Source: Fibrobacter succinogenes subsp. succinogenes S85
GTDB lineage: Bacteria; Fibrobacterota; Fibrobacteria; Fibrobacterales; Fibrobacteraceae
Direction: 5' to 3'
Length of the DNA: 32,000 nt
Assembly: GCF_000146505.1 (NCBI RefSeq)
Contig: NC_017448.1
Location: 2,040,001 to 2,072,000 of the forward strand
Part shown: positions 2,720 through 27,161 of the stretch, piece after piece
How positions within the stretch are numbered: position 1 is the stretch's first letter
Layout: each line of letters starts with the position of its first letter
Position numbers and translations under genes: made by a program
Notes under the pieces: generated by a model
Told to the model about the DNA's origin: nothing
Seen by the model: the letters and a program-made list of their open reading frames with translations, nothing else
Database searches by the model: none

Positions 2720-2728
2720 ATTGTAAAA

Positions 2729-2956
2729 TTAGGAATGTTTTGCAGAAAGTTCTGTTTCTTCAAGTATCTGCACAAGGACTTTGTAATCAAGATACTGGAT
2801 GCCTTCAACGCCCTCATGGATTTTATCGGCAAGCTTGCTCTGGTAATAAAGATCCATAGCTTCTTCCAGCGAACACTTACGCACCTGCGCCAAATACGCT
2901 ATAATCCGTTCTTCCAGACGTTCCTGATAAACCTTCTCTAGAACTTCGCCATCCAT
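2729..2956 (-). CDS. DUF3791-family small protein
   Basis: 75 aa. The helical pattern ...IIAYLAQVRKCSLEEAMDLYYQSKLADKI... resembles DUF3791, and it flanks a DUF3990 gene as that family usually does. Its stop is 9 nt upstream of the res ATG. Confidence 0.55.
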   Translation of the reverse strand: MDGEVLEKVYQERLEERIIAYLAQVRKCSLEEAMDLYYQSKLADKIHEGVEGIQYLDYKVLVQILEETELSAKHS

Positions 2957-2959
2957 AAG

Positions 2960-3439
2960 CTAAGCCTCTTCGCCAGAAACAAACGTCAGTAACGAATCAA
3001 TCGCTTTCTGCGTAATGAAGGCAATCTGATCGTAATGCGGATACACCTTGATTTCTCTCAAGGCGCGGTCTAAGTCCCAGATTCCAGAATGATACATGTC
3101 CACCACACGGAAAACCTTGTCATTCGCAACCTTGCCTACGATAACATCATAATCCTTGTAATCCAATGCCCCATCGCGGCACTTGCAGACAAAATTTATC
3201 CATTCGGTCAAATCTTCTGGAAAAGTCTTTACCGATAAATCGCTTGTAAAATCCGACATCTCGTAGATGTTCAGAACAGGACTCGCACCATCATAAATTT
3301 TTGACTTTCTTACGGCCCAGCGGATAGCCTGCTCGCGAACGGTAGTCACATAGAACCCCATCCCGAAATCAAGGGGCCTATAGGAATGGTTGATATCAGG
3401 CTTCTGCACAACCTGTATTGAGCCGTGGTAAACAATCAT
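2960..3439 (-). CDS. DUF3990-family protein
   Basis: 159 aa. The N-terminus MIVYHGSIQVVQKPDINHSYRPLDFGMGFYVTTVREQAIRWA matches the conserved DUF3990 start (hhYHGS...KPD...LDFGxGFYxT...QAxxWA). It overlaps the upstream DUF3791 gene by 4 nt. Confidence 0.65.
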   Translation of the reverse strand: MIVYHGSIQVVQKPDINHSYRPLDFGMGFYVTTVREQAIRWAVRKSKIYDGASPVLNIYEMSDFTSDLSVKTFPEDLTEWINFVCKCRDGALDYKDYDVIVGKVANDKVFRVVDMYHSGIWDLDRALREIKVYPHYDQIAFITQKAIDSLLTFVSGEEA

Positions 3440-3651
3440 ATAGCCACCTTGCGGACTTTCAAATATTCTTCGATATCGCTCACGACAAAATCAGTCCCTT
3501 GCGTGTGCATTATTTCGTAATTGGGGACAAGGAACTTTTGGATACAACCGGAATCCCTAAGTTTTTTATATACGGCGGACGGCAGCCGATTCCACTTGTT
3601 CGCGCAAGCGTGAATCATGTACACGACAAATTCGAAAGAATCCTGGATCAT
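3436..3651 (-). CDS. DUF3791-family small protein
   Basis: 71 aa. EFVVYMIHACANKWNRLPSAVYKKLRDSGCIQKFLVPNYEIMHTQGTDFVVSDIEEYL fits the DUF3791 pattern. It has a 4-nt overlap with the DUF3990 gene. Confidence 0.6.
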   Translation of the reverse strand: MIQDSFEFVVYMIHACANKWNRLPSAVYKKLRDSGCIQKFLVPNYEIMHTQGTDFVVSDIEEYLKVRKVAI

Positions 3652-3755
3652 AATGCCTCCGTATAATTTAAAAGATACTTATTTTTCATTAAAGAAGGTA
3701 ATATCCGCCGTTCTTTGGAGGTTTACGAACCCACATTTTCTCACGTTATGACGAA

Positions 3756-5981
3756 TCATCCTTTCTTCAAAAATTCAACACGCCATCCCAAATTCAGTGC
3801 ATCCGACAAGTCTTCCAATTGTTTCTTCTTGGTTTCTGTGCTACTATGAGTGTTTAGATAATACCCATCACCCATGGGAACTGAATTTGCATATTTGGAA
3901 CTGTGTTCTCCTTTTTTGAATAAAGGTTCACTATCTAGTACAGATAAATACTTTTGAGCATATTCACACATTTGTTTTTTATCAATGCTCCTTAGAATTT
4001 CTTCAAACGCTTCTATCAATGTGTCTTTTGCAGAATCATGTTGGATTGTCGAGCCATCTTTTTTATAAAGGATAATATTTGTTTTTTTACCCTTTGCGCC
4101 CACAGATCTTATCAGCGGCTTAGATACATTGACGCCAATGACATTAAAAGATTCCGGTTCATCAAAATCACCGTCATCAACGCCCCATATATCCAGCACT
4201 TCCTTTGTCAATGCTACCTGACGCTGGAGACATTGGTATTCATTCCATTCCTTGTGAGCATTGTAAACATTTTCGACAATATCGATAGAAGTAATGCTCA
4301 GTTCCGCATAAGCCTTGACACCCTTGCGTTTGGGCGAGCCTTCCATTTTCACTTTAAACTTATTATTCTGGATAGACGTATTCAGTTTGCTGGTCAAAAG
4401 CGTCATGTTGCCAATGGAATACACCATCTTTTGACGGTTAACCTTACCTTCGGCCTCATCAATTTTCTCGCCCTTGGCATTAACATACGGTACATCGCTC
4501 CAATTTTCCTCCCACTTTTGCGGTATGATATGTTCAAGCGTGTAATCGTATTTCAATTCCTTAAGATCATATTTTTTAGAATCGAAGCGGCGCTTGAGTT
4601 CAATCCAGAAAAGAATTAGAGTCGCTTCGCGGTTCTTTATTTTAGAAAGGCCGGTAAATACCTCGTCATTCGAGATAAGTTCTGCCATCTGGCATGGCTT
4701 CGTCTCGTCATCAATAAACTCAAGGCAATTCTTGTTGTACCCCTTTGTACTTTCTCCCGCAATCATTCTGCGCATAATGAATTTTTCCAATTCATTCATT
4801 CGCTGATTCAGTGTACCTTCGTCTTTTTCATACTTTTTCAGCAAGAATAGAATGTACGGATTAAAGGTTGTCAGACCAAGTACGTCCAGAATATGGAATA
4901 GGCGTTTGGCGCTATCTTCATAAGAATAACAAGTTGTCTTGCCCAATTCCGGGACATTGTCACGATATATCTGAGCATAATTAATGATTTTCCGGACAAA
5001 TTCCTTTACCTCTTTTTCTTTCATTTCTTCGATATACTTTTTGTAGAGGTCAGGAATATCCGTCAAGGTATGCTCGCTTGGGTCAAATATTTTTTCAATG
5101 ATCGCTACGGATTGTAGTAGGACTTCGCTGTTGTCACGCTGAATGCGACCGATGGTCCTTTTCTTGCCCCAATAATGCAGGGTCTCCTCGTCCTTGCAGA
5201 AAACATTTCCCCAAGTGTTATCGTAGAACTCAACGACATCTTCTTCTGTGCAAAATTCAAGAGCCTTTTGGAAGAGGGCGTTTTTCACGATGTCCGTAGA
5301 TGTCAGGCGCACACCCGCACTATTGATGGTATCGAATATCTGCTGTTCGTGGTCATCTTCGTCCAGGGCAATAACCACAATCATCTTGTTATTTTCGGAC
5401 AGCAGATTGTCAAAGATATCGCTCACGATATCAGGAGAGGATGTTTTTAATTGGTCGATGAAATATTTATAACAGCAGAGAATTTTGTGTGACGAATTGT
5501 CATCATCGACATCTAAATTTACGATTTCCGAATAGTCTATAGACGTGATTCCGTTGGCCTCTACACTTCCGATAACTTTTTCAAAATCCTGCCTATCTAC
5601 TTTTGAATGCTTGACTTTGATATGATAAGTCGAATCCGTCTTTTTCCTTTTGTAGAAAAGAGCGTTCCGCGCATCGTCAAGGACATTAGCCTTGATTTCA
5701 TCGCTGAAGGTATCGTATATAGCTTTTAGCAGAATGCTCAATGTGGTCAAGCGTTGCTGGCCGTCAATTACGCTTACACGCGTTGTTGCACCGAATACGG
5801 ACGAATCGTTGATCTTCTTGAGGATGATAGACCCAAGGAAGTGCCTGCGATTCACCTGTTTAAGATCATCCAAGAGTTCTTCCCAGTTGTCTTTTTTCCA
5901 CACGTAGGCTCGCTGGAAAAACGGAATTTCGAAAGTCTGGATTTCGTTCAAGAAGGAAAAGGATTTAGATTCTGCTTTCAT
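3756..5981 (-). CDS. GmrSD-like Type IV restriction enzyme (N-terminal DUF262 ParB-like NTPase + DUF1524 His-Me finger nuclease) with an extra C-terminal domain of about 150 aa
   Basis: 741 aa. DUF262 motifs FEIPFFQRAYVWKKDNW and VIDGQQRLTTLSILLKA. DUF1524 motifs YTLEHIIPQKW ... IGNMTLLTSKLNTSIQNNKF. The tail after about aa 590 matches nothing I recognise. Confidence 0.8.
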   Translation of the reverse strand: MKAESKSFSFLNEIQTFEIPFFQRAYVWKKDNWEELLDDLKQVNRRHFLGSIILKKINDSSVFGATTRVSVIDGQQRLTTLSILLKAIYDTFSDEIKANVLDDARNALFYKRKKTDSTYHIKVKHSKVDRQDFEKVIGSVEANGITSIDYSEIVNLDVDDDNSSHKILCCYKYFIDQLKTSSPDIVSDIFDNLLSENNKMIVVIALDEDDHEQQIFDTINSAGVRLTSTDIVKNALFQKALEFCTEEDVVEFYDNTWGNVFCKDEETLHYWGKKRTIGRIQRDNSEVLLQSVAIIEKIFDPSEHTLTDIPDLYKKYIEEMKEKEVKEFVRKIINYAQIYRDNVPELGKTTCYSYEDSAKRLFHILDVLGLTTFNPYILFLLKKYEKDEGTLNQRMNELEKFIMRRMIAGESTKGYNKNCLEFIDDETKPCQMAELISNDEVFTGLSKIKNREATLILFWIELKRRFDSKKYDLKELKYDYTLEHIIPQKWEENWSDVPYVNAKGEKIDEAEGKVNRQKMVYSIGNMTLLTSKLNTSIQNNKFKVKMEGSPKRKGVKAYAELSITSIDIVENVYNAHKEWNEYQCLQRQVALTKEVLDIWGVDDGDFDEPESFNVIGVNVSKPLIRSVGAKGKKTNIILYKKDGSTIQHDSAKDTLIEAFEEILRSIDKKQMCEYAQKYLSVLDSEPLFKKGEHSSKYANSVPMGDGYYLNTHSSTETKKKQLEDLSDALNLGWRVEFLKKG

Positions 5982-6138
5982 AGGGGTAAAAATACTTATT
6001 TATGACTGGAACGAAAGACTTCAAAACTCAATCCCTATATAGGATGAAGATTAGACACACCTTTATAGTGGCTCATTACACAAAACATGTCGAATTAAGT
6101 TAAATTTCGGCGTTTTATTCATTTTTTGAATAAATATA

Positions 6139-6167
6139 TTGACAAAACAACAAAAAAAACATATCAT
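6139..6167 (+). promoter_or_regulatory. Putative sigma70-type promoter for the + strand toxin/XRE pair
   Basis: TTGACA at 6139-6144, a 17-nt spacer, then TATCAT at 6162-6167. A 7-bp inverted repeat ttattca-N5-tgaataa (6115-6133) abuts the -35 and could be an operator. An AGGAG Shine-Dalgarno (6219-6223) lies 5 nt before the ATG at 6229. This is a sequence-pattern call only. Confidence 0.3.
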
Positions 6168-6277
6168 TATTCGCAAAACGAATAGCAACCACATTAAAGG
6201 ATTAACTTATGAAAATCTAGGAGAACATATGCCTTCCGCATGGACAATAAACAACGACGCCTCGTGCTTTTCTCGCA

Positions 6278-6610
6278 GTGCAGCAAAGAGCTTTTCAAAA
6301 GAATTACCCTCAAGAGTTTGTCAATATCATGGCAAACTTAGATAGATACAAAAGTGCTTTAGATTCTGGGATACACCCTGAGCAAATCAAAAAAGAAAAC
6401 ACTTTTGTCCATAACGAAGGAAAAGGAGTTGTGTCTATAACGCAACACCCCCTCCGTAAAGGAGCGCATCCTCTTAGACTGTACGTTTACCCTTGTTTGA
6501 CCACACACGTATTACACATTCTTTTTATAGGCGACAAACATCATCAAGAAAAAGACATCCAAACAATTCACAACTATGTGAAAAAGAACCTTCAAGAACC
6601 AAACGCTTAA
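6278..6610 (+). CDS. RelE/ParE-superfamily (HigB-like) toxin candidate; start uncertain, possibly frameshifted
   Basis: The C-terminal half ...HPLRLYVYPCLTTHVLHILFIGDKHHQEKDIQ resembles the RelE/ParE core (R-h-h-Y ... hhhhhh-G-x-R/K). It sits directly upstream of an XRE HTH gene, the toxin-first HigBA order. The track start at 6278 is GTG and the first in-frame ATG is 6328. A well-placed SD+ATG at 6229 is in the other frame (see findings). Confidence 0.45.
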   Translation: MQQRAFQKNYPQEFVNIMANLDRYKSALDSGIHPEQIKKENTFVHNEGKGVVSITQHPLRKGAHPLRLYVYPCLTTHVLHILFIGDKHHQEKDIQTIHNYVKKNLQEPNA

Positions 6611-6643
6611 AACATCACATACACCCTAACAAGGGAGACCGCT

Positions 6644-7294
6644 ATGGACAAGAAGATAACTTCAGTTTCGGAATTATTAAAGGATATGGGAATTGATGAC
6701 GACGCAAGAAAGGGCGTCGATAAAGAAATCGAAAATCACATTCTTGGCAAAAATCTGATGATTCTCCGCATGAAGAACAATCTTTCTCAAGCAGAAATGG
6801 CGAAAAAAATAGGTGTATCGCAACCCTGCATTTCCAGGCTTGAATACGCAAGCAATGACCAAATTAGACTTGGCGATTTGAATAAATATGTTGCTGCTTT
6901 GGGCTACGAAACAACGCTCATTATTTCCAAACCGCAGAACATCGCACAAAAAATCAAGAATACCTACAATCAGCTTTCTGCGTTACTAACAGAGTTGCAA
7001 AAATACGCAGTTGATGATGAGGCAATTCTTCAAGGCATCGCCAAATTCGAACTGGAAGCGACCCACAACATGCTCAATCTCGCTTCTGCATTAATAGAAA
7101 GCAGTTCTTCTAAATTGAAGAAGATTCATCCTCAACAAGAAACTCAAATTATTCTTGACGATTCAATAGTTGAAAGTAAAAAGAAAAATTTGGCATTTGC
7201 TCAAGTCAAGGAAGTCGGCGGAATGGCCGACTTTTTGATTCTATTACAATTCATTTTTACGTTGCAAAAGACCACCCATCGTCTCTATTTTTAA
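6644..7294 (+). CDS. XRE-family helix-turn-helix protein (antitoxin/regulator) with a helical C-terminal extension of about 120 aa
   Basis: 216 aa. HTH LSQAEMAKKIGVSQPCISRLEYASN. GGGAG lies upstream of the ATG at 6644. The 3' end overlaps the convergent 905-aa gene by 51 nt. Confidence 0.75.
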   Translation: MDKKITSVSELLKDMGIDDDARKGVDKEIENHILGKNLMILRMKNNLSQAEMAKKIGVSQPCISRLEYASNDQIRLGDLNKYVAALGYETTLIISKPQNIAQKIKNTYNQLSALLTELQKYAVDDEAILQGIAKFELEATHNMLNLASALIESSSSKLKKIHPQQETQIILDDSIVESKKKNLAFAQVKEVGGMADFLILLQFIFTLQKTTHRLYF

Positions 7295-9961
7295 CATACA
7301 ATCAGGTAACATTTTATCCCAAGGCATATTATGAGCCCTCAAAACATACGCATGATTAGATAGACTTGAATCAAATTTCTTGTCATACAATTCAGCTATT
7401 ATTTTCCCCACATTCTCATTCACCTTATAATCATTATAAGGAACTAGATGCATCGCATTCACCTTCAAAGAATAATTTGAATTTTCCGATTCTACCTTAC
7501 TTTTCCCATATGGAATGTTTTTATCATCCAATGCGAAAATACACCTAACCTCAACTTCAACATCTTTTCCAAGAATCTTCTTATTCGTAGCCAATATCTT
7601 ATCAATTGTCGTATTAAGTCTTACATATGATCTTTCAGTTTCTTTACAATTACGGAAATAATAATTCAACATTTTCTCTGTTGAAGAACCTGAAATAATA
7701 TTATCCGTCAAAAAAATTATTTTTGAAATGGTTTTAGGTTTTTGGCCTTCAATATTCAAATAATAACCATAAATAGCATCATTTTTAAGGTTTGCATTTA
7801 ACAACCCTGCATCAATGGCCCATTTTATAATACTTCGGTCTTCTGTGATGTTTTTTGTAATAATATTCGATAGAGTTCCCCCGTCTCCGTAGCTTTCTTT
7901 GCCAACAAATAAAACATCATTACTCTCCAATTCTTTGATTTTCTTGATAAAAGTAGAATCCCATTCATCACTATTCAAAACATAATTTGAATAATATTTA
8001 TTTAAAAGCAAGTCCTTAAATTTTTCGAACCAATTTTTTTCATCCCCCGGTTTAATAAATACCTGTATGTGCCAATATAATTTAAAAATAGCCAAAGCTT
8101 TACAATCTGTTCCGTTTGTAAATCCGTACAGTTTTCGTAATTTATCTGTAAATCCAGTGTGTTCAACAATTGTAGCAATCCTAAAAAAATTTGAATCTTT
8201 TAAGAAAATATCTTTTGTTAAAGAACTTTCTTCCCTTATATTATGCAATTTTTTTAAATATTTTTCCGTATCTATCCATTTACGAGGAATAAGAATATAA
8301 TGGCTATTTTTGTTTATCGCCCATATTTTTTCTTCCTCGTAATCATTTATATTATCATCTTCATTCTCGCACTTAATTACACTCGCGTCAATTCGATGAG
8401 AGTCGACATAAAATAAATTTTTTCCTTTATTTTTCTTTATTTCAACAGAAACAATATTTCCTTCATGTTCGGAGAAATATTCTTTCCTCAGCAAATTTTC
8501 AAAAAAAACTTTTATATCGCCATTACAAGGCACATAGATTTGATAAGGCATAATTAGCTTCGGAACCAAATCCATAGAAGTATTTTCGTCATAACGATCT
8601 GGATTTACATATTTTTTTATAAAATTAAAATAAAGGATAAGCGCATTTTCAATCTTTCCATGCTTTTCATTTTCTTCAATAAATCGTTTAAAAAGAGCAT
8701 TTTGATAAAACTCATCGTCAGTCAACGTTTTAATACATTCTAAATATTTCGTATTTTGAACGCAATCATCACCTGTTAAGTTTGCAAAAAATTCAGCTAA
8801 AAAATCTATTGTAAGAATATTTGTTTCTAATCTATTTTGTTTAAGAATTACACCTCTTATTCCATTCTGACTATTTCCTATGATTTTCCAAAAATGTCTT
8901 GGTGTGCAAGGAGAGGATTTATTTTCTGATTCAACAATTTGTTTGTCTTTGAATTGATTTGTTATTTGAAGATAACGGCCATCATTTCTATCTACAATAA
9001 AGGCCTTATCAAAAAAAACATTATAACAAGATTTACTACTCACGTCGAGTAAAACATCTACTTTTGCATTTGAATTACTTCCTAAAAGAATTTCTTTTAG
9101 GGAACAAAACCTCCAGTTTTCCTGAACAGCTAAAACTATATACCATGCAATTTCTTCATTTTTAGAGTTTTTTTCAGCTTGAACTGTTTCTCCGCCAAAA
9201 TAATCTTTTTTTGTACTTCTAATAATTAAATATGATTCGTCGTGAACCATCAAAACTTGGTTTGCTAAATTGTTTTTTCCTGCAAGTGCTCCTCCTATAA
9301 AAGATCCATTATTGCATAAAAGTTCAAGAATTTTAATATTGTATTTTTGGGCAATCTCATTCACTTTTTGGCGAATAGAAACCTTGTCATCAAAATCTAT
9401 TTGTGTATAGATTTGCAACGCGAAGAAAAGCTGAATTAGATTTTCTTTTGTTGGATCCTTTGCGTCTTCAATAACTCCATCTAACAGGTCATGAATCGGA
9501 TAAACGTATGCTCCTATGTCATCCTTAATCCGAAAAATCCACGAAAATTGTTCTGTAAACTCCCCAATATGGGTATAAAAAACATTAAACTTATCTTTTA
9601 AGGTATTAAATAGCAATCTGTTCTTATTTGCTAATTCGCTTAAAAATTGTACTAAAACAATTCCATGATGAGAATAAATGTTTTTTCGTTCTTTTGCTAG
9701 AGATAAATTATTTATGTAATCAATAAAATTTTTGAATAGATTTATAGGAAAGTCTTTAGAGTGTGCAGATTCCAATTTTATTACACACGAGAGCATCCAA
9801 AAAATTCTACATATTTCTTCAATGTTTTCTTCTTTTTCAGTATTCTCGAATTTTTCAGATAGAGTTAAATTCACCAATTCAATAAGAATTTTGATTTTAT
9901 TTAAATCTTTATTTTCTAAATCTAACGACAACTGTTCTAGACGACGCTTCAACATCTTCAT
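7244..9961 (-). CDS. Large (905 aa) uncharacterised partner of the AEP-RT, with a C-terminal PRTase-like nucleotide-binding loop
   Basis: A long uninterrupted ORF in roughly 25% GC DNA. Its ATG lies 7 nt after the RT stop, and the spacer reads AAGGGAA, which is SD-like. KIIFLTDNIISGSSTEKML near aa 740 resembles the PRPP-binding loop (hhhhDDhhsTGgT) of type I phosphoribosyltransferases. I recognise nothing in the remaining roughly 700 aa. Confidence 0.7.
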   Translation of the reverse strand: MKMLKRRLEQLSLDLENKDLNKIKILIELVNLTLSEKFENTEKEENIEEICRIFWMLSCVIKLESAHSKDFPINLFKNFIDYINNLSLAKERKNIYSHHGIVLVQFLSELANKNRLLFNTLKDKFNVFYTHIGEFTEQFSWIFRIKDDIGAYVYPIHDLLDGVIEDAKDPTKENLIQLFFALQIYTQIDFDDKVSIRQKVNEIAQKYNIKILELLCNNGSFIGGALAGKNNLANQVLMVHDESYLIIRSTKKDYFGGETVQAEKNSKNEEIAWYIVLAVQENWRFCSLKEILLGSNSNAKVDVLLDVSSKSCYNVFFDKAFIVDRNDGRYLQITNQFKDKQIVESENKSSPCTPRHFWKIIGNSQNGIRGVILKQNRLETNILTIDFLAEFFANLTGDDCVQNTKYLECIKTLTDDEFYQNALFKRFIEENEKHGKIENALILYFNFIKKYVNPDRYDENTSMDLVPKLIMPYQIYVPCNGDIKVFFENLLRKEYFSEHEGNIVSVEIKKNKGKNLFYVDSHRIDASVIKCENEDDNINDYEEEKIWAINKNSHYILIPRKWIDTEKYLKKLHNIREESSLTKDIFLKDSNFFRIATIVEHTGFTDKLRKLYGFTNGTDCKALAIFKLYWHIQVFIKPGDEKNWFEKFKDLLLNKYYSNYVLNSDEWDSTFIKKIKELESNDVLFVGKESYGDGGTLSNIITKNITEDRSIIKWAIDAGLLNANLKNDAIYGYYLNIEGQKPKTISKIIFLTDNIISGSSTEKMLNYYFRNCKETERSYVRLNTTIDKILATNKKILGKDVEVEVRCIFALDDKNIPYGKSKVESENSNYSLKVNAMHLVPYNDYKVNENVGKIIAELYDKKFDSSLSNHAYVLRAHNMPWDKMLPDCMLKIETMGGLLQRKNEL

Positions 9962-9968
9962 TTCCCTT

Positions 9969-12482
9969 TTATTTTTCTAGTGATTTTGACAAGAAAATCA
10001 ATATACTTTTTTCTATGAACTCAACTCCATCATCTTTTGAAAAATAATCAACTAAACATTTTAATTGATTCTCCTTATTTTCTAATAAGGTGTTATTTTG
10101 AACCGACGTAAATAAAATCTGAATAAAATTTTTAAAATTGATAGAATTAATTGGAATTTCTTTGTAATACTCTTTATTAATAAAAAGTTGAAATAAAAAA
10201 GGAGATGAAAATAGTAATTTGTAGAATTTTCTAAAGACGCTTCCTCTTCCCATATCAGAAGCTGCTATTTGTTCCAAATGCTTTTTTGCAAAATCAATCC
10301 TATTTGGAAGATCAATACAATTACTCAACAAGAAATTGGCATCGTTAATACTCCATTCTCCATTTCTTAAAACAAATCTATCCATTGCAAAACACGGATC
10401 TCCATCAAGTAAAACACTTTTTTCTTGCGTAACATCATACATCAATTGATTTAGACGACCAAATTCTTCTAATTCTTCTAATGACAAATTCGAAATTTTA
10501 CCATAAATCTTTGTTTTTTCCTTGTTAAAGAAAAGACTATTTTTTTCAAAAAAAGAAGCTAATTCCATCAAAATTTTTTCACCATCCAGCGTTGAGTCAT
10601 AGAAAATATACATATCATCCACATATCTAAATATTTTTACTTTGTTAGACAAAGTAATATTTTTTTCAATAAATTCATCAACTATAGAATCAAGAATAAA
10701 TTCTACAAGAACTCTAGCATAAGCTGGACCTTGTGGAACGCCTTTTTGAGAGCCTACAGCATTAATCATTAGTCGTTCGTTGAATGAAATAAGGTAATTG
10801 CAAATATTTGAAATTTCTTTTCCTATTTTTTCTTTTTTGTCAATACTTTTCAGCAAAGTGTTTTTTAGAGAGCTCAAAAAAATGCTATCATAACAATTTT
10901 TTAAATCAGCCTTAATAAAGCCGAAATCTTCAAATAGTTTTAGATTAAAAAACACAGATACATCTTGGATAAATTTACTCCATGAATTTATCCAAGGAGA
11001 AAAAACATCGCCGCCCTCTGATAAATTTAAATGGTAGCTATAAGACTTGTAATCTTTTTGTATGCGACTCACTAGTTCAAAAATAAGTGCAGTAGTAAGA
11101 ACTCTTTCTTTCACCCCAAGTGATATCATTATTCGTTCTTTTTTTTCTTCTTTTCGCAAAAAAGACATATAATCTATATCAAGAGGAGTTTCCGCTTCAC
11201 CAGCAATAATTTTTTTTAAAACGCTATTAGATTCAGAAATATCATAAAAAGAGAAAAAACGAAAATCTTGTTCTATTTTTAGAGAAAGAACTTCATCGTT
11301 GTAATGAAAATAGTTATTCTCTTTCTTTAAAATACTTTCAATTAAAAGAGAATCTTTACTTTTTTTTATTTCACAACTTTCAAAAGGAATGTCCATTTTC
11401 TCTAAAACAAACTCAGCAATAGAACGCTGATCCTTACAAGGAGAAACTCCATATATGCTATGTAGATATTGAATTGTCAGCGGAAAATAAACTCTTTTAT
11501 TTTTCCGAATTTCCTCATTTGTAATCTCGGCATTAAAATTCGACTGCATTTTAAATATTTGCCATAAAATTTTTTCACCTTCTCTAATATGGGCAAATGT
11601 ACCTAGCATTATTTTTCGATCACATATTGTCATTTTCCCATTAGAAATATTTCTCCATATAATTTTCAAAGCAGAATCAGATTCAAATGCTCGCTCTAAC
11701 TGTTCAAAGGAGTAATTCTCTTTGGGGGTGACAAATTGTCTTTTTACAAATTCTTCTATTTCAATTTGTTGTACATCTAGCTTAATTCTTTCTACAAGTT
11801 CTATAGGATTATTTACAGAAAATTTTTTCAAACATTCAAGTTGGCTTCTTAAAAACGACGTGTCAAATTTTTCAATTTTTTCGCAAGAGAAATTGTTTAT
11901 ATCGTTTACAAAATATGAATAAGTTCCTTTTTGATGTCGCGAAAGCGGAATTTTTACCATAGATCCATATTTGTTTTTTTTCTTTCCGCTCAATACTTTA
12001 GGAAATCTATCTAAACCATAGACCAAATCAGCCGCCAAACAAGATTTCATGCCATCCAACAATCGATCTTGTATTAAATAACCTAAGTTTTTAGGAATTG
12101 CACGATTAAATAGAATCCAAATATGAAAACCTCTTCTTCCGGAATATTCTATTATATATTTAATATTTAATGAATCTAACACCTTTGTAAAAGGAATTAC
12201 ATACTTTTCTTTTAATTCTTTTACATTCCCTCCGGCGTCCTTCTTGCAATCAAAGTCAAAACAGATCCATCTTAGCAAATCTAAATATGTCAGCTGTTGA
12301 TACGCTCCTAATGCGGCGCCTGATTTCAACATTTTTTTTATTAAAAATGGAGTTACCGTTGCTTTGGTTGCTATATAAATACCATCGTCTCTTTGCACTC
12401 CAACTACAGTGTCATTGGTGACAAATTTTTGAAAAAGTTCATTTGATACTTCATCCAATAACAAATCCATAGAATCTTTCAT
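9969..12482 (-). CDS. Fusion protein: N-terminal archaeo-eukaryotic primase (AEP/PrimPol) domain + reverse transcriptase (UG/Abi or DRT-like)
   Basis: 837 aa. AEP motifs in order: ICFDFD (DxD), YSGRRGFHIWILF (SGxGxH, compare eukaryotic PriS SGRRGVHCW), GLDRFP...GSMVKIPLSRHQKG. RT motifs: FIKADLKNCYDSI (A), KGVPQGPAYARVLVEFIL (B), FRYVDDMYIF (C, YxDD), FNKEKTKIY (D). The ATG lies 3 nt after the mod stop. Confidence 0.85.
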   Translation of the reverse strand: MKDSMDLLLDEVSNELFQKFVTNDTVVGVQRDDGIYIATKATVTPFLIKKMLKSGAALGAYQQLTYLDLLRWICFDFDCKKDAGGNVKELKEKYVIPFTKVLDSLNIKYIIEYSGRRGFHIWILFNRAIPKNLGYLIQDRLLDGMKSCLAADLVYGLDRFPKVLSGKKKNKYGSMVKIPLSRHQKGTYSYFVNDINNFSCEKIEKFDTSFLRSQLECLKKFSVNNPIELVERIKLDVQQIEIEEFVKRQFVTPKENYSFEQLERAFESDSALKIIWRNISNGKMTICDRKIMLGTFAHIREGEKILWQIFKMQSNFNAEITNEEIRKNKRVYFPLTIQYLHSIYGVSPCKDQRSIAEFVLEKMDIPFESCEIKKSKDSLLIESILKKENNYFHYNDEVLSLKIEQDFRFFSFYDISESNSVLKKIIAGEAETPLDIDYMSFLRKEEKKERIMISLGVKERVLTTALIFELVSRIQKDYKSYSYHLNLSEGGDVFSPWINSWSKFIQDVSVFFNLKLFEDFGFIKADLKNCYDSIFLSSLKNTLLKSIDKKEKIGKEISNICNYLISFNERLMINAVGSQKGVPQGPAYARVLVEFILDSIVDEFIEKNITLSNKVKIFRYVDDMYIFYDSTLDGEKILMELASFFEKNSLFFNKEKTKIYGKISNLSLEELEEFGRLNQLMYDVTQEKSVLLDGDPCFAMDRFVLRNGEWSINDANFLLSNCIDLPNRIDFAKKHLEQIAASDMGRGSVFRKFYKLLFSSPFLFQLFINKEYYKEIPINSINFKNFIQILFTSVQNNTLLENKENQLKCLVDYFSKDDGVEFIEKSILIFLSKSLEK

Positions 12483-12485
12483 ATC

Positions 12486-14405
12486 TTACACCACCTTCAC
12501 GGTTGTATTTGGGCTGAGGGTTTTGAAGATTTCGGTGACATTGATTTTGGCGGAGTCGCTTTTGAAGCTGGAGTCACGGAAGACGGCGCGGAGGGGCTTG
12601 GTTGCTGCGATTTGGCGGATGGCGGCTTCGGGGATGTCGCTTGCAAAGCAGGCGACTAGGTCGCCGTCATTGACGTTATAGACTTGGAGGTTTTCGATGG
12701 TTTCGGTTTTGATGGGGAGCGAGAGCGGGACGCCCCAATCGACGAGGCAGCCGAAGAGGAGGTCCATGTCGGTGCGGCCGTCCTTGATGTTGCTGATTTG
12801 CTCGACGAGGTCTTGCTGGGAGATTTCGCCGGCGGAGTAATAGACGTCCTTCATGTTGGAGTCATCGATTTTCAGGACGCGGAAACCGATGTCCAACGGT
12901 TTTGCAGTTGTGGGCTTGTCACTTGCGCTATCAAACAGGTCCGTTTTGTCGGCGGCAGATTTTTCTTTGGCTTGTTGTTCTGCAAGGATTTTATCGCCTG
13001 CGCGGCGGATGCGTTCCTTACCGATTTCGCAAATGGTCTTGTAGCCAGCCTTTGCGGCTTCAGAATTTTCATCGCATTTTTCTGGAAGTTGAACCATGAT
13101 GAATTTGCGATGGCCGCCGTCTTCAGCATTCAATTGCATAACGGCATGAGCAGTTGTTGCAGAGCCAGAGAAGAAGTCTAAAACAATTCCAGACGGGTCT
13201 CTTAATAGAGCCAACATATTTTGGACAAGTTCTATTGGTTTTGGAGTATCGAAAACCTGAATTCCATTAAATAGCTCTTTTATCATTGCCGCAGATTGAC
13301 GAGTTGTTCCATATTTTGGTCCATCCCATAAATTTTCAGGAGTTCGCCCCACTTGATCGTTCAAATAAATTTTTCGTATAATGCCACTAAAATCACTTTT
13401 AAACTTAATTTCACCCGTAGAAATTTTTTCTTTGATTGATTCTTCCGACCATCTCCAACCTTTTTCTGGAGCCTTTATCACATTTCCATTTGGAGCAACA
13501 ATATCATAGCACAACGTTTTTCTGTAATTTGGACTGCGGACATCCCCACTTCGCCACAAGCCCTTCGGATCGTTATCAGGATTACTGTAATTTACATTAT
13601 CTTCAGCAGTCCTTTCCATATAAAATCTTGGCAATTGGTTCATATCGTGAGCATACACGAACGTATGATTATACTGTCTTGAAAAATGAAGTTCATCATT
13701 TTTGCTTTGTTGTGTATGTTTCCATATGACATTTGCAACAAAATTACTTCCACCAAACACTTCGTCGCAAATCTTTTTCAGGTTCGCTTGTTCGTTATCG
13801 TCGATGCTGATAAATATCACGCCATCGTCGGTGAGCAGGTTGCGGGCGAGCAGCAGGCGGCTGTAAATCATGGAACACCAGTCGGAATGGAAACGGCCGT
13901 TGCTGTCGGAATTCTGCACCATGCGATTTCCTTCGTCGTCCACGGCGCCGCTTTCTTCGGCGTACTTGGCGCTATCCATGCGGAAGTCGTCTTTGTAGAT
14001 AAAGTCGTTTCCGGTGTTGTAGGGCGGGTCGATGTATATCATCTTGACCTTGCCCAGGTAGCCCTCTTGCAGGAGTTTCAGGGCTTCGAGGTTGTCGCCT
14101 TCGATGTAGAGGTTCTCGGTGGTGTCGAAGTTCTTGGATTCTTCCACGCAGGGGCGCAGCGTCTTGCGGATGGGTTTCGCGGCTTCTACCATGGCGTCGC
14201 GCTTGCCGACCCAGGTGAATTCGTAGGACTCGTCGCCTTCCGCGACGCTCTCGCCGAGCATCTGCTTGAGCGCATCGAAATTCACCGCCTTCTTCAGCTT
14301 GCCATCCTTGGCCTTGCTTTCGGTCACGCAATTCGGGAACAGCGCAGCAATCTTCTCGACGTTCATCTGCACCATATCGGGAGTTTCAAACTTCATCTTT
14401 TCCAT
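12486..14405 (-). CDS. mod: Type III R-M Mod subunit, beta-class N6-adenine DNA methyltransferase
   Basis: 639 aa. Motif IV MIYIDPPYNTGNDFIYKDDF is N-terminal and motif I VLDFFSGSATTAHAV is C-terminal, with a central variable region between them. That is the Type III Mod architecture. The flanks are GC-rich and the centre is AT-rich. Confidence 0.9.
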   Translation of the reverse strand: MEKMKFETPDMVQMNVEKIAALFPNCVTESKAKDGKLKKAVNFDALKQMLGESVAEGDESYEFTWVGKRDAMVEAAKPIRKTLRPCVEESKNFDTTENLYIEGDNLEALKLLQEGYLGKVKMIYIDPPYNTGNDFIYKDDFRMDSAKYAEESGAVDDEGNRMVQNSDSNGRFHSDWCSMIYSRLLLARNLLTDDGVIFISIDDNEQANLKKICDEVFGGSNFVANVIWKHTQQSKNDELHFSRQYNHTFVYAHDMNQLPRFYMERTAEDNVNYSNPDNDPKGLWRSGDVRSPNYRKTLCYDIVAPNGNVIKAPEKGWRWSEESIKEKISTGEIKFKSDFSGIIRKIYLNDQVGRTPENLWDGPKYGTTRQSAAMIKELFNGIQVFDTPKPIELVQNMLALLRDPSGIVLDFFSGSATTAHAVMQLNAEDGGHRKFIMVQLPEKCDENSEAAKAGYKTICEIGKERIRRAGDKILAEQQAKEKSAADKTDLFDSASDKPTTAKPLDIGFRVLKIDDSNMKDVYYSAGEISQQDLVEQISNIKDGRTDMDLLFGCLVDWGVPLSLPIKTETIENLQVYNVNDGDLVACFASDIPEAAIRQIAATKPLRAVFRDSSFKSDSAKINVTEIFKTLSPNTTVKVV

Positions 14406-14419
14406 GGGATACCTTTTGT
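14320..14419. repeat. Direct repeat copy A: functional mod 5' end plus about 14 nt of leader
   Basis: Aligns with 17211-17309 at an offset of 2891 nt. There are 3 substitutions (14346 a/g, 14361 g/a, 14371 a/g) and one T indel at the distal end. Confidence 0.9.
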
Positions 14420-14451
14420 ACGAAATATAGGATCATTTCTTCATTTTGTGC

Positions 14452-17148
14452 TTACACACTATGAAAACGCCTTTCTAAATCATCAACAGTATTCTTCAAT
14501 TTTTTATATACACCCAAGAATGTATTATCTTTTTTCAAAAATTCCAAAATATTTAATGTTGAACGGATTGACGAATAATATGTTTTTGGGGGATAGCCAT
14601 CAATAAGCTTCTCAACCAATTTACAAACCTCATTTTTATTTTTCTTAAGATTAAAAGCAATTAAATAAAGATGATAATTTGTAGTGTTAATGAACTGTCC
14701 AAAGTCATTATTCTCCATTTTACTTATTTTTTGATTTACAACATATTGCTTTATAATTTTTTGACAATTTTTATCTGATATCTGGTATAATTCAAGTAAT
14801 ACATTTTGAATGAATTCTATTTTTTCTTTCTCAGAATAATCATCAATATTTCGAATTATATTATGAATAATATAATCAGAAGTAAATTTAGATTTAAGAA
14901 TACGGCCACAATAGTAAAGATTGTATAATCTATTCCATGACAATGCTGTTTCTTCATAACCGTTCATTTTTTTGCAAATAAATTTATTTAACAAATTTTC
15001 CAACAATGTAATAATTTGTTTTTGATTAAATGAACGTGAGTATAGATTCCACTGAATAGCAAAAAAACTATTGATTGCGCTAAAAATAACAAGGGTATTC
15101 TTAGCTTCATTCACCAGACGATTTAGTATGGCCCATATTTTCTTATATAATTCATCCGATAACTCATTTAATGATAAGATGAAAAGTGCTTTTTCTATAT
15201 ATCCATCAAAATTATCCCAAATAGAATAGGATGTTCTATCAATAAAATGATTCACACAATTTTTTATTACAGAATCAACAAGCCAATTTAATAGATCCTG
15301 GTCTAAAGCCAAATTCTTCCTTTTGCCTTTCTTTTGAAAATCTTCAAATAGGTATTTTAAATCATCGCTCTTATAATATTTGATGCATACATACAAATCA
15401 ATTTTACTTAAAGTAATTTTTTTCTTTTTCTGCTGTTGTAATAAAGCTATTGACACATAATTTTTGCATAATTCACGATAAATTGAAAAACCTTCTATGC
15501 AAATACCATTTAGTAGAACAAAATCAATCAGATTTTGCAATTCAGATTCCGGTTTATTTTCATTTGACGAAAAAACCATTCCTCCACGATCGATAATTCT
15601 GTAATTCTTTTCTTTTTCCTTTACATTTGTAAAAGACTCAAATTGAAATTTGTAAAGATCAAGCATCGTTAAGAAATTCTTCATTTCTTCACAATCTCTT
15701 TGAGCATCTTTAGGGAAAAAGCTATACTCTATATCTATTGAAAACCGACTTTCCTGCTTAAATTTTATTTCAAGGTCACTTATATATTTTAGTTCATTTA
15801 AAAGAAGATTGTGATTAAAAAAACCTACAAGCAAATAAAGATAATTATGTTTTCTTTTGCATAACGAAATCATTCGCCTATTACACTCAAAAGCATCTTC
15901 AATTCTACCTAGATTTCTGAAACAGACAATATTCCTAAGAACAGAAGAAATATCATCCTCATCCCTTTTTATTGAGTAATCAAAATTTATTATTGCAGAC
16001 TCTTCACGTACATTATTTTCTGTAAAAAGGCGATATTTATAACAATTTTTTTCATCTATAGATGTCACAAATCCTGTAATATTGGCTTTAGCCAGTATAT
16101 TACATATTCGGTTAATTTTTTCATCACATCCACTCAATTCTTTTATAAAATTTTGGTATATTTCTTTTCTCTTCTCATCTTCTTTTTCTCTAAAGTTATA
16201 CTCATGAAAATGCAGGATACCTCTTTTTTGTGAATCGTATAATATTTCACTATTTTTTAAAGAATTGCAAATATTCTTTTGTAATGCTACATAGTAGTTA
16301 TCGTATTTCTTTATTTCGTTATATACATATTCAACGGGATTTTGAGAAAAATCAGTTGGCGTCCCAAGTTCCGTTAAAAAACTTTTTAACGACTCGGTTC
16401 GATTTTCGTTTTCAACAACAATTGTGATAATTCCAAATTTTTCTAAATACCTTTCCGAAAATTCGTCATACTTATTGACCACCATATAAATAGGGGGTTG
16501 GACTGTAGAATGATTTTGGAACCAGTTTACAATTTGTTTTAAGTCTATATCGCTAAACGAGTACCCTATCATTACAATAGTATGAGTGGATACAATACTC
16601 TTTATATAATTTTCTATTAAAGGAAAATTGTTTGAGTAATTGAGATAATCATCTTCAGTAAAAATATAATTGTCGTGGTGAAAATCACCATGCATTTTAA
16701 TAATCTTATTGTCGTTCTTTGATTTAATTAATTCATTATCAGAAGCAATAACATCATAGATATAATTTATTTCTTCTTCTATACAATTTTCAAAAAGACA
16801 ATCCCAATTTGTTGTAATTATGCAGTGTGGTCGTAATTTTAAGATAGCTCGTTGAATATCAGATGGAATATCTTTTGTGGGGAAGCAACTACCAACAGTA
16901 CTCTTTAATTTTAATGGTCCATACTTTAAAGCATAAAGTTGAGCAATTTTTAAAGGATCAGAATCCTTGCATCCAATAAGGCCTCTCTGCAACTTTTTTA
17001 ATATATCCGACCATAGTGGATATGTATCACCAGAGGCAGAGGCCCTAGACACTCCCGAACCAACAAAAAATGCCAATTTGTGTTCCGATAAAGATTCTTT
17101 TATCAATCTATAGTATTCAATATTTTTGTCAACAATAGAATTAGCCAT
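14452..17148 (-). CDS. SIR2_2-domain protein with a long helical C-terminal region (DSR1/DSR2-like defence-associated sirtuin candidate)
   Basis: 898 aa. The N-terminal roughly 260 aa carry SIR2_2 landmarks: KLAFFVGSGVSRAS, YPLWSDIL, CIITTNWDCLFE, IIKMHGDF, VMIGYSFSDIDL. The remaining roughly 630 aa are low-complexity helical. A hand-counted sample gives about 28% GC. Confidence 0.8.
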   Translation of the reverse strand: MANSIVDKNIEYYRLIKESLSEHKLAFFVGSGVSRASASGDTYPLWSDILKKLQRGLIGCKDSDPLKIAQLYALKYGPLKLKSTVGSCFPTKDIPSDIQRAILKLRPHCIITTNWDCLFENCIEEEINYIYDVIASDNELIKSKNDNKIIKMHGDFHHDNYIFTEDDYLNYSNNFPLIENYIKSIVSTHTIVMIGYSFSDIDLKQIVNWFQNHSTVQPPIYMVVNKYDEFSERYLEKFGIITIVVENENRTESLKSFLTELGTPTDFSQNPVEYVYNEIKKYDNYYVALQKNICNSLKNSEILYDSQKRGILHFHEYNFREKEDEKRKEIYQNFIKELSGCDEKINRICNILAKANITGFVTSIDEKNCYKYRLFTENNVREESAIINFDYSIKRDEDDISSVLRNIVCFRNLGRIEDAFECNRRMISLCKRKHNYLYLLVGFFNHNLLLNELKYISDLEIKFKQESRFSIDIEYSFFPKDAQRDCEEMKNFLTMLDLYKFQFESFTNVKEKEKNYRIIDRGGMVFSSNENKPESELQNLIDFVLLNGICIEGFSIYRELCKNYVSIALLQQQKKKKITLSKIDLYVCIKYYKSDDLKYLFEDFQKKGKRKNLALDQDLLNWLVDSVIKNCVNHFIDRTSYSIWDNFDGYIEKALFILSLNELSDELYKKIWAILNRLVNEAKNTLVIFSAINSFFAIQWNLYSRSFNQKQIITLLENLLNKFICKKMNGYEETALSWNRLYNLYYCGRILKSKFTSDYIIHNIIRNIDDYSEKEKIEFIQNVLLELYQISDKNCQKIIKQYVVNQKISKMENNDFGQFINTTNYHLYLIAFNLKKNKNEVCKLVEKLIDGYPPKTYYSSIRSTLNILEFLKKDNTFLGVYKKLKNTVDDLERRFHSV

Positions 17149-17206
17149 ACAAACCTTTTTAAAGAATACTTTGATTTGTCACGATGCTCATCATTTTAAA
17201 ATCACC

Positions 17207-17296
17207 TTATTCGGTCACGCAATTCGGGAACAGCGCGGCAATCTTCTCGACATTCATCTGCGCCATATCGGGAGTTTCAAACTTCATCTTTTCCAT
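17207..17296 (-). pseudogene. Truncated 5' remnant of mod (29 codons + stop)
   Basis: Hand translation gives MEKMKFETPDMAQMNVEKIAALFPNCVTE*. The intact mod starts MEKMKFETPDMVQMNVEKIAALFPNCVTESKAK.... The two diverge exactly after codon 29. Confidence 0.85.
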
Positions 17297-17309
17297 GGGA
17301 TACCTTTGT
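17211..17309. repeat. Direct repeat copy B: mod 5' remnant
   Basis: See copy A. About 97% identical over about 97 nt. Confidence 0.9.
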
Positions 17310-18646: not shown

Positions 18647-18704
18647 AATGCCTCTTTTTTGCCTTTTTATAGTAAATATATATAAAAAAGCCGTAAAACA
18701 ACAA

Positions 18705-18752
18705 AAATATCTTGATAAAAGTGTAGTTTAAATACATTTTTATCAAGATATT
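18705..18752 (-). terminator. Perfect 16-bp inverted repeat; likely intrinsic terminator of the SNF2-PLD operon, or an operator for the ATPase gene
   Basis: aaatatcttgataaaa (18705-18720), a 16-nt loop, then ttttatcaagatattt (18737-18752). On the minus strand the hairpin is followed by TTTTGTTGTTTTAC. The stem is almost entirely A/T, so stability is modest. Confidence 0.4.
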
Positions 18753-18865
18753 TAAGTTTTGGGAGGGGAAATGGCGATTTTAGCGGAATTTTGCCATTTT
18801 TCGGCAAAAATCGCGCCGTATGTTGAAATATCTATAATTTTGGCCGGATTTTTTGTTGAAAAAAA

Positions 18866-20065: not shown

Positions 20066-20522
20066 CAGAGCTATGATTTCTTTTTTCTTCGCGAGCTTTT
20101 AGCCATGCATTTACACCCATTTTCAATACTATAAATAATAAAATTCCAATAACAGGTCCTATAAAAACAGATGCCGTACCAACAATTCCTGCAATAGCTT
20201 CTGATATTTTAGCGACAACAGCATACTGAATTATATTAGTATCCGCCAGCAATGTTGTTATTTCGTTCTTATATTTGTCATCTCCTCGCAAAAGTAATTC
20301 TAATTCATCCAGAATTCTTTCTAAAGTAGGTGTCTGTGGAGCCTCAGATCCAAAAGGAGCAGTGCTATTATTTGTTACACAAAGCCATTCTCTAGCAACT
20401 TTTTCGTAGTCGCCTAAATTAGCATACATTGTTGTTATCATGGACTGCTGATATTTTGGTATAGTTTGAAGCCAGGAATCTGTACCATACTGTTCTAATA
20501 GAGCAATAAATTGTTCATTCAT
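20058..20522 (-). CDS. Small protein (154 aa) with a C-terminal hydrophobic, probably membrane-inserting, segment
   Basis: The soluble N-terminal roughly 100 aa are followed by AIAGIVGTASVFIGPVIGILLFIVLKMGVNAWL and a basic tail KAREEKRNH. Its start shares one base with the protease stop (TAATG). Confidence 0.6.
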   Translation of the reverse strand: MNEQFIALLEQYGTDSWLQTIPKYQQSMITTMYANLGDYEKVAREWLCVTNNSTAPFGSEAPQTPTLERILDELELLLRGDDKYKNEITTLLADTNIIQYAVVAKISEAIAGIVGTASVFIGPVIGILLFIVLKMGVNAWLKAREEKRNHSSGA

Positions 20523-27010: not shown

Positions 27011-27161
27011 GATGTCCTCCTTGTTTTCTTTCAAACTAGCACATTCAATTTCGCGAGACCAACAAATCGGCATCGAATCTGGATAAATGTTTTTTACGTT
27101 CTGCAACGAAAAAATTTTTTCATAAAACCATGAGTCACCGCGATTTACTATAATTTGGAAT

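Follow-up and report, generated by a model that had tools for sequence, protein, structure and literature searches.

Defence genes embedded in restriction-modification (R-M) operons are an established pattern. PrrC lies within the type IC locus EcoprrI (PMC12707154), RhuM, DOC, Ymh and AbiA-type reverse transcriptases (RTs) have been described as "in operon with R-M" (PMC3710099), DUF1016 and RhuM occur between hsd genes (PMC9881135), and backup effectors occur within bacteriophage exclusion (BREX) loci (PMC12839542). In addition, putative type III systems in their hundreds carry a third gene 5' of mod, which encodes a helicase/ATPase with no nuclease motif (Murray et al. 2021; PMC8259958). 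Here we analyzed a 32,000-nucleotide stretch of Fibrobacter succinogenes subsp. succinogenes S85 (contig NC_017448.1, positions 2,040,001 to 2,072,000; hereafter the window), in which the methyltransferase gene (mod) and the restriction gene (res) of a type III-like R-M system are separated by other defence genes, among them an RT of the UG10-small type and its accessory gene. The locus is a new, type III-like example of the embedded pattern, with a turnover that is unusually large and well documented. Our literature search returned no paper on Fibrobacter defence islands and none with an S85 methylome.

We propose that the split between mod and res is a slot for exchangeable defence genes within a four-gene R-M scaffold, in which the modules are independent of one another and are turned over between strains, and we consider this very likely. 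The window is a 100% match over 13.65 kb to the S85 genome (CP001792.1), and since this is the finished genome of an isolate, the split arrangement is not an assembly artefact. On the minus strand, the mod-RT junction reads GTG GTG TAA GAT ATG AAA GAT, with the mod stop at 12488..12486 and the RT ATG at 12482. The res ATG, at 2719, lies 9 nucleotides (nt) past the stop of a gene for a 75-amino-acid (aa) protein, which leaves 9,766 nt between mod and res. A preliminary description of this DNA had reported the 3-nt spacer, the mod stop and the res start, together with spacers of 58, 46, 3 and 7 nt at the upstream junctions, and all of these are borne out by the sequence. It was also right that the RT pair is AT-rich relative to mod and res, but its figure of about 23% GC was too low: we measured 29.0% for the RT gene and 29.2% for the 905-aa accessory gene, compared to 52-53% for the N- and C-terminal parts of mod and 52% for res.

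Among the Fibrobacter relatives, mod and res lie 3.2-9.8 kb apart in all 17 loci, which represent 16 distinct genomes, and S85 has the largest distance. Apart from a ~1-kb triad of genes, the cargo is largely genome-specific, and cargo DNA is shared between pairs of genomes only as single modules, in a mosaic. By gene calls and Pfam, the slot holds ThsA_Macro/ThsB_TIR with unknowns, DndB with Ymh, Peptidase_C14 with DUF6602, TIR and SocA, PIN_12 and Ymh with XRE and GmrSD, Mrr-like, Thoeris-like and McrBC genes, AAA_21 proteins, or another GmrSD, so that in the 16 genomes defence-rich variable cargo lies between conserved flanks, as in a defence island. Homology between S85 and the other strains stops at recurrent gene borders, namely 21182 (the DUF4391 stop), 14408-14430 (3-25 nt 5' of the mod ATG), 12476-12493 (the mod stop), 7236, ~6191 and 3718-3739. 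At the DUF4391 stop, homology with other strains is lost at 21155-21188, and in the one genome that lacks the triad the breakpoint falls at 2728, 9 nt before the res ATG. In the Pfam-annotated Fibrobacter loci, 47 cargo genes lie between mod and the triad; 41 of them share the orientation of mod, and the other six are all part of the XRE module. Outside Fibrobacter, more than 600 nt separate mod and res in 19 of 51 loci, where every open reading frame (ORF) of at least 60 aa in the inserts (30/30) is co-oriented; those scanned against Pfam encode RhuM, Schlafen/AlbA_2-HATPase_c_4, YhcG/DUF1016, DUF6602, AAA_21 or DUF2971.

The flanks of the slot belong together. We scanned the Mod protein against one genome per species, which gave 79 loci, and then placed all window proteins by tblastn. 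The gene order SNF2-DUF4391-mod-res was seen in Firmicutes, Planctomycetes, Proteobacteria, Spirochaetes, Chloroflexi and other phyla, with synteny at 27 non-Fibrobacter loci, also on plasmids; in the non-Fibrobacter loci, SNF2 and DUF4391 are tightly spaced in 25 of 27 cases and DUF4391 and mod in 14 of 29. As the preliminary description had suggested, we compared the locus with its relatives, and orthologous mod and res are indeed adjacent elsewhere. With at most 150 nt between them in 28 of 51 relatives outside Fibrobacter, the two genes are cognate, and the possibility that this res belongs to another mod falls away. The assumption of a tight two-gene pair did not hold, as the conserved unit has four genes, SNF2-DUF4391-Mod-Res. 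This module, present in many phyla and on plasmids, is uncharacterized in the literature; the DUF4391 protein had no match in PADLOC, NCBIfam or PDB sequences, and a literature search on DUF4391 returned nothing relevant. All four scaffold genes are tightly packed on the Escherichia coli IncFIB plasmid pLAO18 (L171, 3154-12215). On the Raoultella plasmid p3045-3 (L170, 5687-17625), a 900-aa ATP-binding gene sits between DUF4391 and the methylase gene, and a WYL-domain gene lies upstream. A megablast of mod and res against E. coli genomes gave no match.

In S85, both R-M proteins carry the features of a type III system. Mod, a beta-class N6/N4 methyltransferase with a central target recognition domain (TRD), matches Pfam N6_N4_Mtase (E=8.6e-34) and, over its full length, PADLOC MTase_III (E=1.6e-233), with DPPY at residue 126. 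Res, an SF2 helicase-endonuclease, matches Pfam ResIII and PADLOC REase_III (E=8.8e-259) and has a Walker A motif, GTGKT; the full-length S85 gene (L081) comprises ResIII and RE_endonuc. The NCBIfam type III endonuclease model was matched at E=1.5e-97, where the score of 327.6 bits, below the 564-bit cutoff, comes from a query clipped at the window edge. The usual adjacency of mod and res in one operon is what S85 departs from, with 9,766 nt in between. The TRD has 36.8% GC, compared to 52-53% in the rest of mod, and is swapped among strains at fixed breakpoints (13705-13753 and 13178-13193), with Mod ranging from 639 to 758 aa. As judged from these swaps, the specificity of Mod is reshuffled at the same locus as the cargo.

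The cassettes are also younger than the scaffold that holds them. Between S85 and locus L086, synonymous divergence (dS) is 0.01 for the RT gene and 0.05 for the 905-aa gene, compared to 0.30 for res and 0.37 for the C-terminal part of mod, and between S85 and L087 it is 0.05 for the SIR2 gene and 0.27 for res. Thus, within the same pairs, cassettes at 0.01-0.05 lie in a scaffold at 0.27-0.37, and cargo has been exchanged independently of its flanks. Sliding-window identity between S85 and L086 is ~99.5% from ~12480 to 7450 and 85-94% in the flanks. That the cassettes are far less diverged than the scaffold points to recent exchange, and ratios of nonsynonymous to synonymous divergence (dN/dS) of 0.06-0.18 speak for functional cargo genes (res, 0.058). 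Together with the cognate mod and res and the variable 3.2-9.8 kb of cargo in all 16 genomes, these findings strongly support the first of two readings in the preliminary description, that the mod-res junction is an insertion hotspot.

We suggest that the cassettes and the Mod TRD would move among lineages by homologous recombination in the scaffold segments (the N- and C-terminal parts of mod, the triad and res), and that occasional illegitimate insertions and deletions would create new combinations and leave scars. Scars of three kinds were found in S85: a 98-nt duplication of the mod 5' end, a gene remnant 5' of the triad, and the loss of the XRE stop codon. Two slots flank mod, one past the DUF4391 stop or before mod and the other between the mod stop and res, and the mod-res slot of S85 holds four modules: the UG10-small RT with its 905-aa partner, the XRE module, GmrSD, and the triad. 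Each module would act alone, with Mod/Res restricting unmethylated DNA, GmrSD cutting modified DNA, the UG10 enzyme making protein-primed poly(dT)/poly(dA) DNA and aborting infection, and SIR2 depleting NAD+.

The short distance between mod and its neighbor is not peculiar to the RT. We found that mod ends in ...AAGGTGGTGTAA in every Fibrobacter genome with a locatable junction, and that the first cargo gene, which is one of at least 10 different genes, begins 1-15 nt past this same stop, with junctions such as TAA-G-ATG, TAA-A-ATG, TAA-ATT-ATG, TAA-AATATG and TAA-AGGAGAAAGT-ATG. Because at least 10 different first genes show the same 1-15-nt distance, the spacing is generic and, on this comparison of junctions, is a property of the slot, not of a partnership between RT and Mod.

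The RT pair itself belongs to a described group of systems. UG10 enzymes join an AEP primase to an RT and have an accessory part of ~800 aa, which is fused to them or has an ORF of its own downstream, and the fused form (DRT7) alone defends E. coli (PMC9226505). In DRT7, the RT synthesizes protein-primed poly(dT) and the primase copies it; the trigger is lambda Gam, a DNA-mimic protein (bioRxiv 10.64898/2026.02.16.706125). The S85 RT matches the PADLOC RT_UG10_small profile (E=1.6e-290; residues 5-836 vs profile positions 1-823 of 824) as well as Pfam AEP-TOTE and RVT_1, carries the motifs DFD76 (primase) and YVDD620 (RT), and has a dN/dS of 0.10 vs L086. The 905-aa ORF starts 7 nt past the RT stop, so that both marks of a UG10-small system are present, a full-length AEP primase-RT match and a separate accessory ORF directly downstream. 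We compared the pair with a set of 80 metagenomic UG10-small relatives (29-55% identity); those with listed ORFs have an ORF of 740-1040 aa 3' of the RT, and in about half of them this ORF is detectably similar to the 905-aa protein. Within 7 kb, no homologue of a type III Mod or Res was found around any of the 80. Within Fibrobacter, the Mod allele of L003 is 99% identical but has Mrr-like, Thoeris-like and McrBC genes behind it and not the RT. In L086, which lacks GmrSD, the same RT cassette follows, after a 4-nt spacer (TAA-GAAT-ATG), a Mod whose TRD differs. By its domain content and neighborhood, the S85 RT pair is a self-contained UG10-small (DRT7-like) system with a predicted role in defence.

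Of the rival explanations, the one that survives best is that the embedded cargo, the UG10-small pair among it, is tied physically or through regulation to the R-M system as a guard or backup and fires when phage anti-restriction proteins disable it, much as PrrC does. PrrC embedded in an hsd locus is a precedent (PMC12707154, PMC3710099), DRT7 is reported to be triggered by the DNA mimic Gam (bioRxiv 10.64898/2026.02.16.706125), UG10-small pairs are also found downstream of PglX in BREX loci, and the cargo is co-oriented and abuts the mod stop. However, the cargo differs in every genome and comprises many unrelated stand-alone systems, UG10/DRT7 alone defends in E. coli (PMC9226505), and the UG10-small loci sampled among the 73 without an upstream PglX adjoin other defence genes or housekeeping genes, e.g., GMP synthase or a glycosyltransferase. 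Moreover, the constant association of an embedded gene with R-M that marks the PrrC type is missing, with none of the 80 relatives near a type III system and other cargo behind the same Mod allele. We therefore regard this coupling as unlikely.

A second possibility, which we hold to be highly improbable, is that the insertions broke the R-M system and left mod as an orphan methylase and res decaying or in separate use. The 9.8-kb gap would fit this, as would the convergent gene pair and terminator-like hairpin within it, but both ORFs are whole with their catalytic motifs, purifying selection on res is strong (dN/dS 0.058), and a split with an intact res is found in 16 of 16 genomes. The least credible rival, also the second reading of the preliminary description, makes the RT pair a functional partner of Mod, for example in self/non-self marking, with the 3-nt spacing as obligate translational coupling of a complex; a Shine-Dalgarno-like AAGGTGG in the last mod codons and the similar junction in L086 would suit it, but against it stand the generic spacing, the other cargo of the 99%-identical L003 Mod, the different TRD behind which the cassette sits in L086, the absence of type III genes around all 80 relatives, and an RT cassette much younger than mod.

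Several points weigh against an exchangeable slot of independent modules or limit how far it can be taken. Recombinase, integrase and transposase families were absent among called genes within 10 kb at 10 loci, and our repeat search found no att-like or border-shared repeat, only the 98-nt mod duplication and a palindrome. Hence no recombinase or repeat was found that would explain precise insertion at stop codons. The 905-aa protein had no match in PADLOC (including the RT_UG10_large profile of the fused form, which has a C-terminal 'arch' domain), NCBIfam or PDB sequences. In seven of the 80 metagenomic UG10-small loci, a BREX methyltransferase gene of the PglX type precedes the pair, immediately so in five of the seven. 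These are on human-gut metagenome contigs (L140, 101-15114; L132, L142, L144, L149 and L169, ~3200-12250; and L124), and in L140 the pair sits with an AAA_21 gene between pglX and pglZ. UG10-small may therefore have a looser link to methylation-based systems, or serve as a backup against DNA mimics that counter restriction. The relatives are mostly metagenome-assembled genomes, in which variable regions can be mis-assembled, and both the coupled expression of the cargo and the activity of the R-M system are things that we infer.

A GC-rich hairpin 8 nt past the 905-aa stop is terminator-like on both strands (folds of -15.9 and -19.4 kcal/mol, z ~-3.7), and since the XRE pair is convergent and this hairpin intervenes, read-through from mod to res is doubtful. 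What S85 shares with other strains extends as far as the mod stop, so an RT-specific promoter would have to lie inside conserved mod coding sequence, and it is reasonable to expect that the RT pair is co-transcribed with mod. More generally, the cargo is probably expressed from the mod transcription unit, given its 1-15-nt starts and co-orientation, and res in S85 probably has its promoter upstream of GmrSD, in a unit with GmrSD and the triad. A promoter scan did no better than shuffled sequence (51 sites vs 52 expected; terminator-like sites, 20 vs 17), and from the terminator scan we used only individual conserved hairpins.

The coordinates of all features are collected in the table, where scaffold and cargo are listed in the direction of the minus-strand genes.

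Table. Features of the S85 locus, with positions counted from the first letter of the window
Feature	Position	Strand	Remarks
SNF2-family helicase	21837-25139	minus	Pfam; motifs GLGKT and DESH; scaffold gene
DUF4391 gene	21169-21840	minus	Pfam; scaffold gene
Trypsin-like protease and partner	20522-21169; partner 20058-20522	minus	PADLOC candidate PDC-M35; cargo directly 3' of the DUF4391 stop
PLD-family nuclease	18866-20065	minus	Cargo in the DUF4391-mod slot
AT-rich palindrome	18700-18758	not assigned	29-nt arms
AAA_14/DUF4143 ATPase	17324-18646	minus	PADLOC candidate PDC-S01; cargo of the DUF4391-mod slot
Direct-repeat copy of the mod start	17210-17307	minus	98 nt; other copy at 14319-14416
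SIR2 cassette	14417-17209	minus	ORF 14452-17148, 27.8% GC; placed at the mod 5' end
mod, type III methyltransferase	12486-14405	minus	N-terminal part 13720-14405, TRD 13188-13719, C-terminal part 12486-13187
mod-RT junction, TAA-GAT	12483-12488	minus	RT ATG comes next
UG10-small RT (DRT7-like)	9969-12482	minus	N-terminal AEP primase and RT
905-aa accessory protein of the UG10-small system	7244-9961	minus	
GC-rich hairpin	7209-7236		Between the convergent 905-aa and XRE genes; edge of the XRE module
Opposite-strand module	6278-7294	plus	Small ORF 6278-6610 and XRE-family helix-turn-helix gene 6644-7294
GmrSD-family type IV restriction enzyme	3756-5981	minus	Pfam GmrSD_N and GmrSD_C
Conserved leader 5' of the triad	3652-3739	minus	Common end-point of variable cargo
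Triad	DUF3791 3436-3651; DUF3990 2960-3439; 75-aa gene 2729-2956	minus	PADLOC candidate PDC-M13
res, type III restriction subunit	1-2719	minus	906 codons within the window, then the left edge; 1015 aa in the S85 genome

The catalytic motifs of the scaffold proteins and the RT are whole, comprising DPPY in Mod, YVDD in the RT, DFD in the primase, GLGKT and DESH in SNF2 and GTGKT in Res. The gene content that the preliminary description gave for the region between mod and res stood, except for the toxin label of the small ORF at 6278-6610. This ORF had no match in Pfam, PADLOC, NCBIfam or PDB sequences, and its identity as a toxin was not confirmed. As a separate observation, a public gene call at 6140-6610 (L081, 7043-7513) gives a 156-aa product, but under genetic code 11 its frame contains several stops and only a 110-aa ORF from 6278 is open. 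The XRE gene matches Pfam HTH_3, with the module edge at 7236. Its orthologues, aligned from L084, L001 and L086, end in ...NLAFA*, and in S85 this stop has been lost, which adds 30 codons through the hairpin and makes a 51-nt overlap with the 3' end of the 905-aa gene (7205-7294).

The modules nearest to res differ in how constant they are. GmrSD is optional, found in L010/L084 and L088 but missing from L086 and L001, with a dN/dS of 0.06. The triad lies next to res in 15 of the 16 Fibrobacter genomes. DUF3990 has been cleanly deleted in two strains (L085, 10216-10288; L007, 13934), with breakpoints equivalent to window positions 3431 and 3024, which indicates that the triad is not an obligate three-gene unit. 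The leader (3652-3739) includes the 3' remnant of a lost wHTH-type gene that ends in ...KIEFRGAPKNGGYYPL* in relatives; its truncation differs by strain, with homology breakpoints at 3706-3739. In addition, we noted up to three copies of GGCGGTGTAAA, 21-24 nt apart, in non-coding sequence 5' of the triad in L017 (8616-8680) and also in L002, L087 and L089; this element is absent from the S85 window and resembles the mod 3' end, GGTGGTGTAA. On the res side, the 3' half of the 75-aa gene with the 9-nt leader (2721-2900) has the lowest diversity of the triad-res region (0.008-0.024 vs 0.03-0.06 nearby) and a dS of 0.00-0.09, compared to ~0.3 for res. This stretch may hold a res promoter or translation-initiation element, although the dip in diversity is too weak for the claim of a promoter.

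The junction between DUF4391 and mod is a second slot in Fibrobacter, with 1.6-5.3 kb of strain-variable cargo. In L001, L017 and L082, the AAA_14 gene directly abuts mod; in S85, a SIR2 gene comes in between. This 2.8-kb cassette matches Pfam SIR2_2 and, in part, the Dsr2 models of PADLOC and NCBIfam. It is flanked by a 98-nt direct repeat, 97% identical (14319-14416 and 17210-17307), that consists of the ribosome-binding site and first 29 codons of mod, and L087 carries the same duplication. The 'gene' at 17296 with which the preliminary description began its series of minus-strand genes is, in fact, the relic ORF left by this duplicate, MEKMKFETPDMAQMNVEKIAALFPNCVTE*, 29 codons long and ended by TAA. 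Judging by the repeat, the SIR2 cassette is an insertion at the 5' end of mod, and the duplication would fit a single-crossover insertion of a DNA circle bearing that homology.

Farther upstream, the palindrome at 18700-18758 is kept ~80 nt 5' of mod, or of AAA_14 where this gene precedes mod, in the compared Fibrobacter loci. Read on the gene strand, it folds into a hairpin with a U-run behind it, and the 221-nt intergenic region folds with z = -5.7. The palindrome is likely a terminator or operator dividing SNF2-DUF4391 from the mod unit, and its hairpin and U-run suggest that SNF2-DUF4391 is a separate transcription unit. Just 5' of SNF2 lies a gene (25307-27226) whose 639-aa product has a von Willebrand A domain at its C-terminus; homology with other Fibrobacter loci stops at ~25224, so the flank 5' of SNF2 is strain-specific as well. 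To the right of ~27.2 kb there are housekeeping genes, such as those for a GDSL lipase and the lipid II flippase MurJ. The latter is divided between two ORFs that overlap in different frames (30025-30774, profile positions 2-212; 30746-31618, profile positions 219-437), which could reflect a frameshift or sequencing error or else a genuine split.

Together, these findings show that conservation of an R-M system is compatible with its subunit genes being the anchors of a fast-turning defence island, and that specificity, through the Mod TRD, and accessory immunity are shuffled at one address. They also call for caution in reading tight gene spacing as functional partnership. The slot is a resource for discovery, as it holds many family-less cargo ORFs in the 16 genomes, and the res-side marker protein is found in more than 1,000 blocks of a public assembly collection. 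Among the ORFs that we noted in both slots (L080-L089, L001-L017) are many co-oriented ones without a Pfam match, for example those of 268, 328, 222, 260, 203, 189, 403 and 406 aa and a recurrent trio of small genes before mod (71-136, 196-198 and 133 aa). All of these are candidate new defence genes.

The UG10-small pair recurs 3' of methyltransferase genes, namely type III mod in S85 and PglX in BREX loci. As a tentative and rather doubtful extension, SNF2-DUF4391-Mod-Res could be an integrase-free expression platform, where promoter-less cassettes would be captured at the DUF4391 and mod stops, co-transcribed and perhaps translationally coupled, with some of the cargo serving as a backup that senses anti-restriction DNA mimics. 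If this were true, the junction 3' of a methyltransferase gene would be a general docking site of methylation-based immunity and a place to search systematically for new defence genes.

We considered three kinds of known system as a home for this locus and rejected each. DISARM, suggested by the joint presence of SNF2, PLD and methylase genes, does not fit, as the SNF2 protein scores 157 bits against a DrmD cutoff of 610, there is no DrmB (DUF1998), and the PLD gene is strain-variable cargo. Neither do MANTIS/Gao_RL and BREX-related systems, as DUF499 (AAA+ ATPase) and DUF1156 (methyltransferase) domains are missing and Mod is an N6_N4_Mtase of the type III kind. No IntI integrase gene and no attC-like repeats were found, which speaks against an integron, although the locus is like an integron array in that co-oriented, tightly packed and apparently promoter-less cassettes lie 3' of a fixed expression point. 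Compared to UG10-small and DRT7 systems, the S85 RT is alike in its full-length AEP primase-RT profile and in the separate ~900-aa ORF directly downstream; defence, however, has been reported for the fused form, to which the S85 accessory protein has no detectable similarity. The type III systems with a third gene (PMC8259958) share with S85 an extra ATPase/helicase gene upstream of mod-res, a likeness of gene position. Unlike the S85 locus, they come without mention of DUF4391 and without description of cargo insertion.

As in the core hotspots of Pseudomonas aeruginosa and E. coli (PMC10250203, PMC10121019), conserved flanks in Fibrobacter enclose strain-specific cargo made of mosaic modules; compared to those hotspots, the S85 flanks are defence-subunit genes, not housekeeping genes, and no mobile-element genes accompany the cargo. 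BREX loci with embedded effectors, such as BrxU/GmrSD and backup nucleases (PMC12839542), are likewise methylation-based operons with extra defence genes, but their scaffold proteins differ, and the S85 locus has no BrxC or PglZ. A further likeness is to type I R-M systems with embedded PrrC, RloC, RhuM, DOC, Ymh or DUF1016, in which stand-alone, co-oriented defence genes lie between subunit genes, as here, and RhuM, DUF1016/YhcG, AlbA_2/Schlafen, AAA_21 and Ymh are cargo families common to type I operons and the mod-res relatives that we examined. Functional coupling of the PrrC kind belongs to EcoprrI, whereas the S85 locus is known from sequence comparison. Compared to the type I examples, the host system in S85 is type III-like with SNF2 and DUF4391, the cargo amounts to as many as four modules over 9.8 kb, and its turnover is documented at the level of the population.

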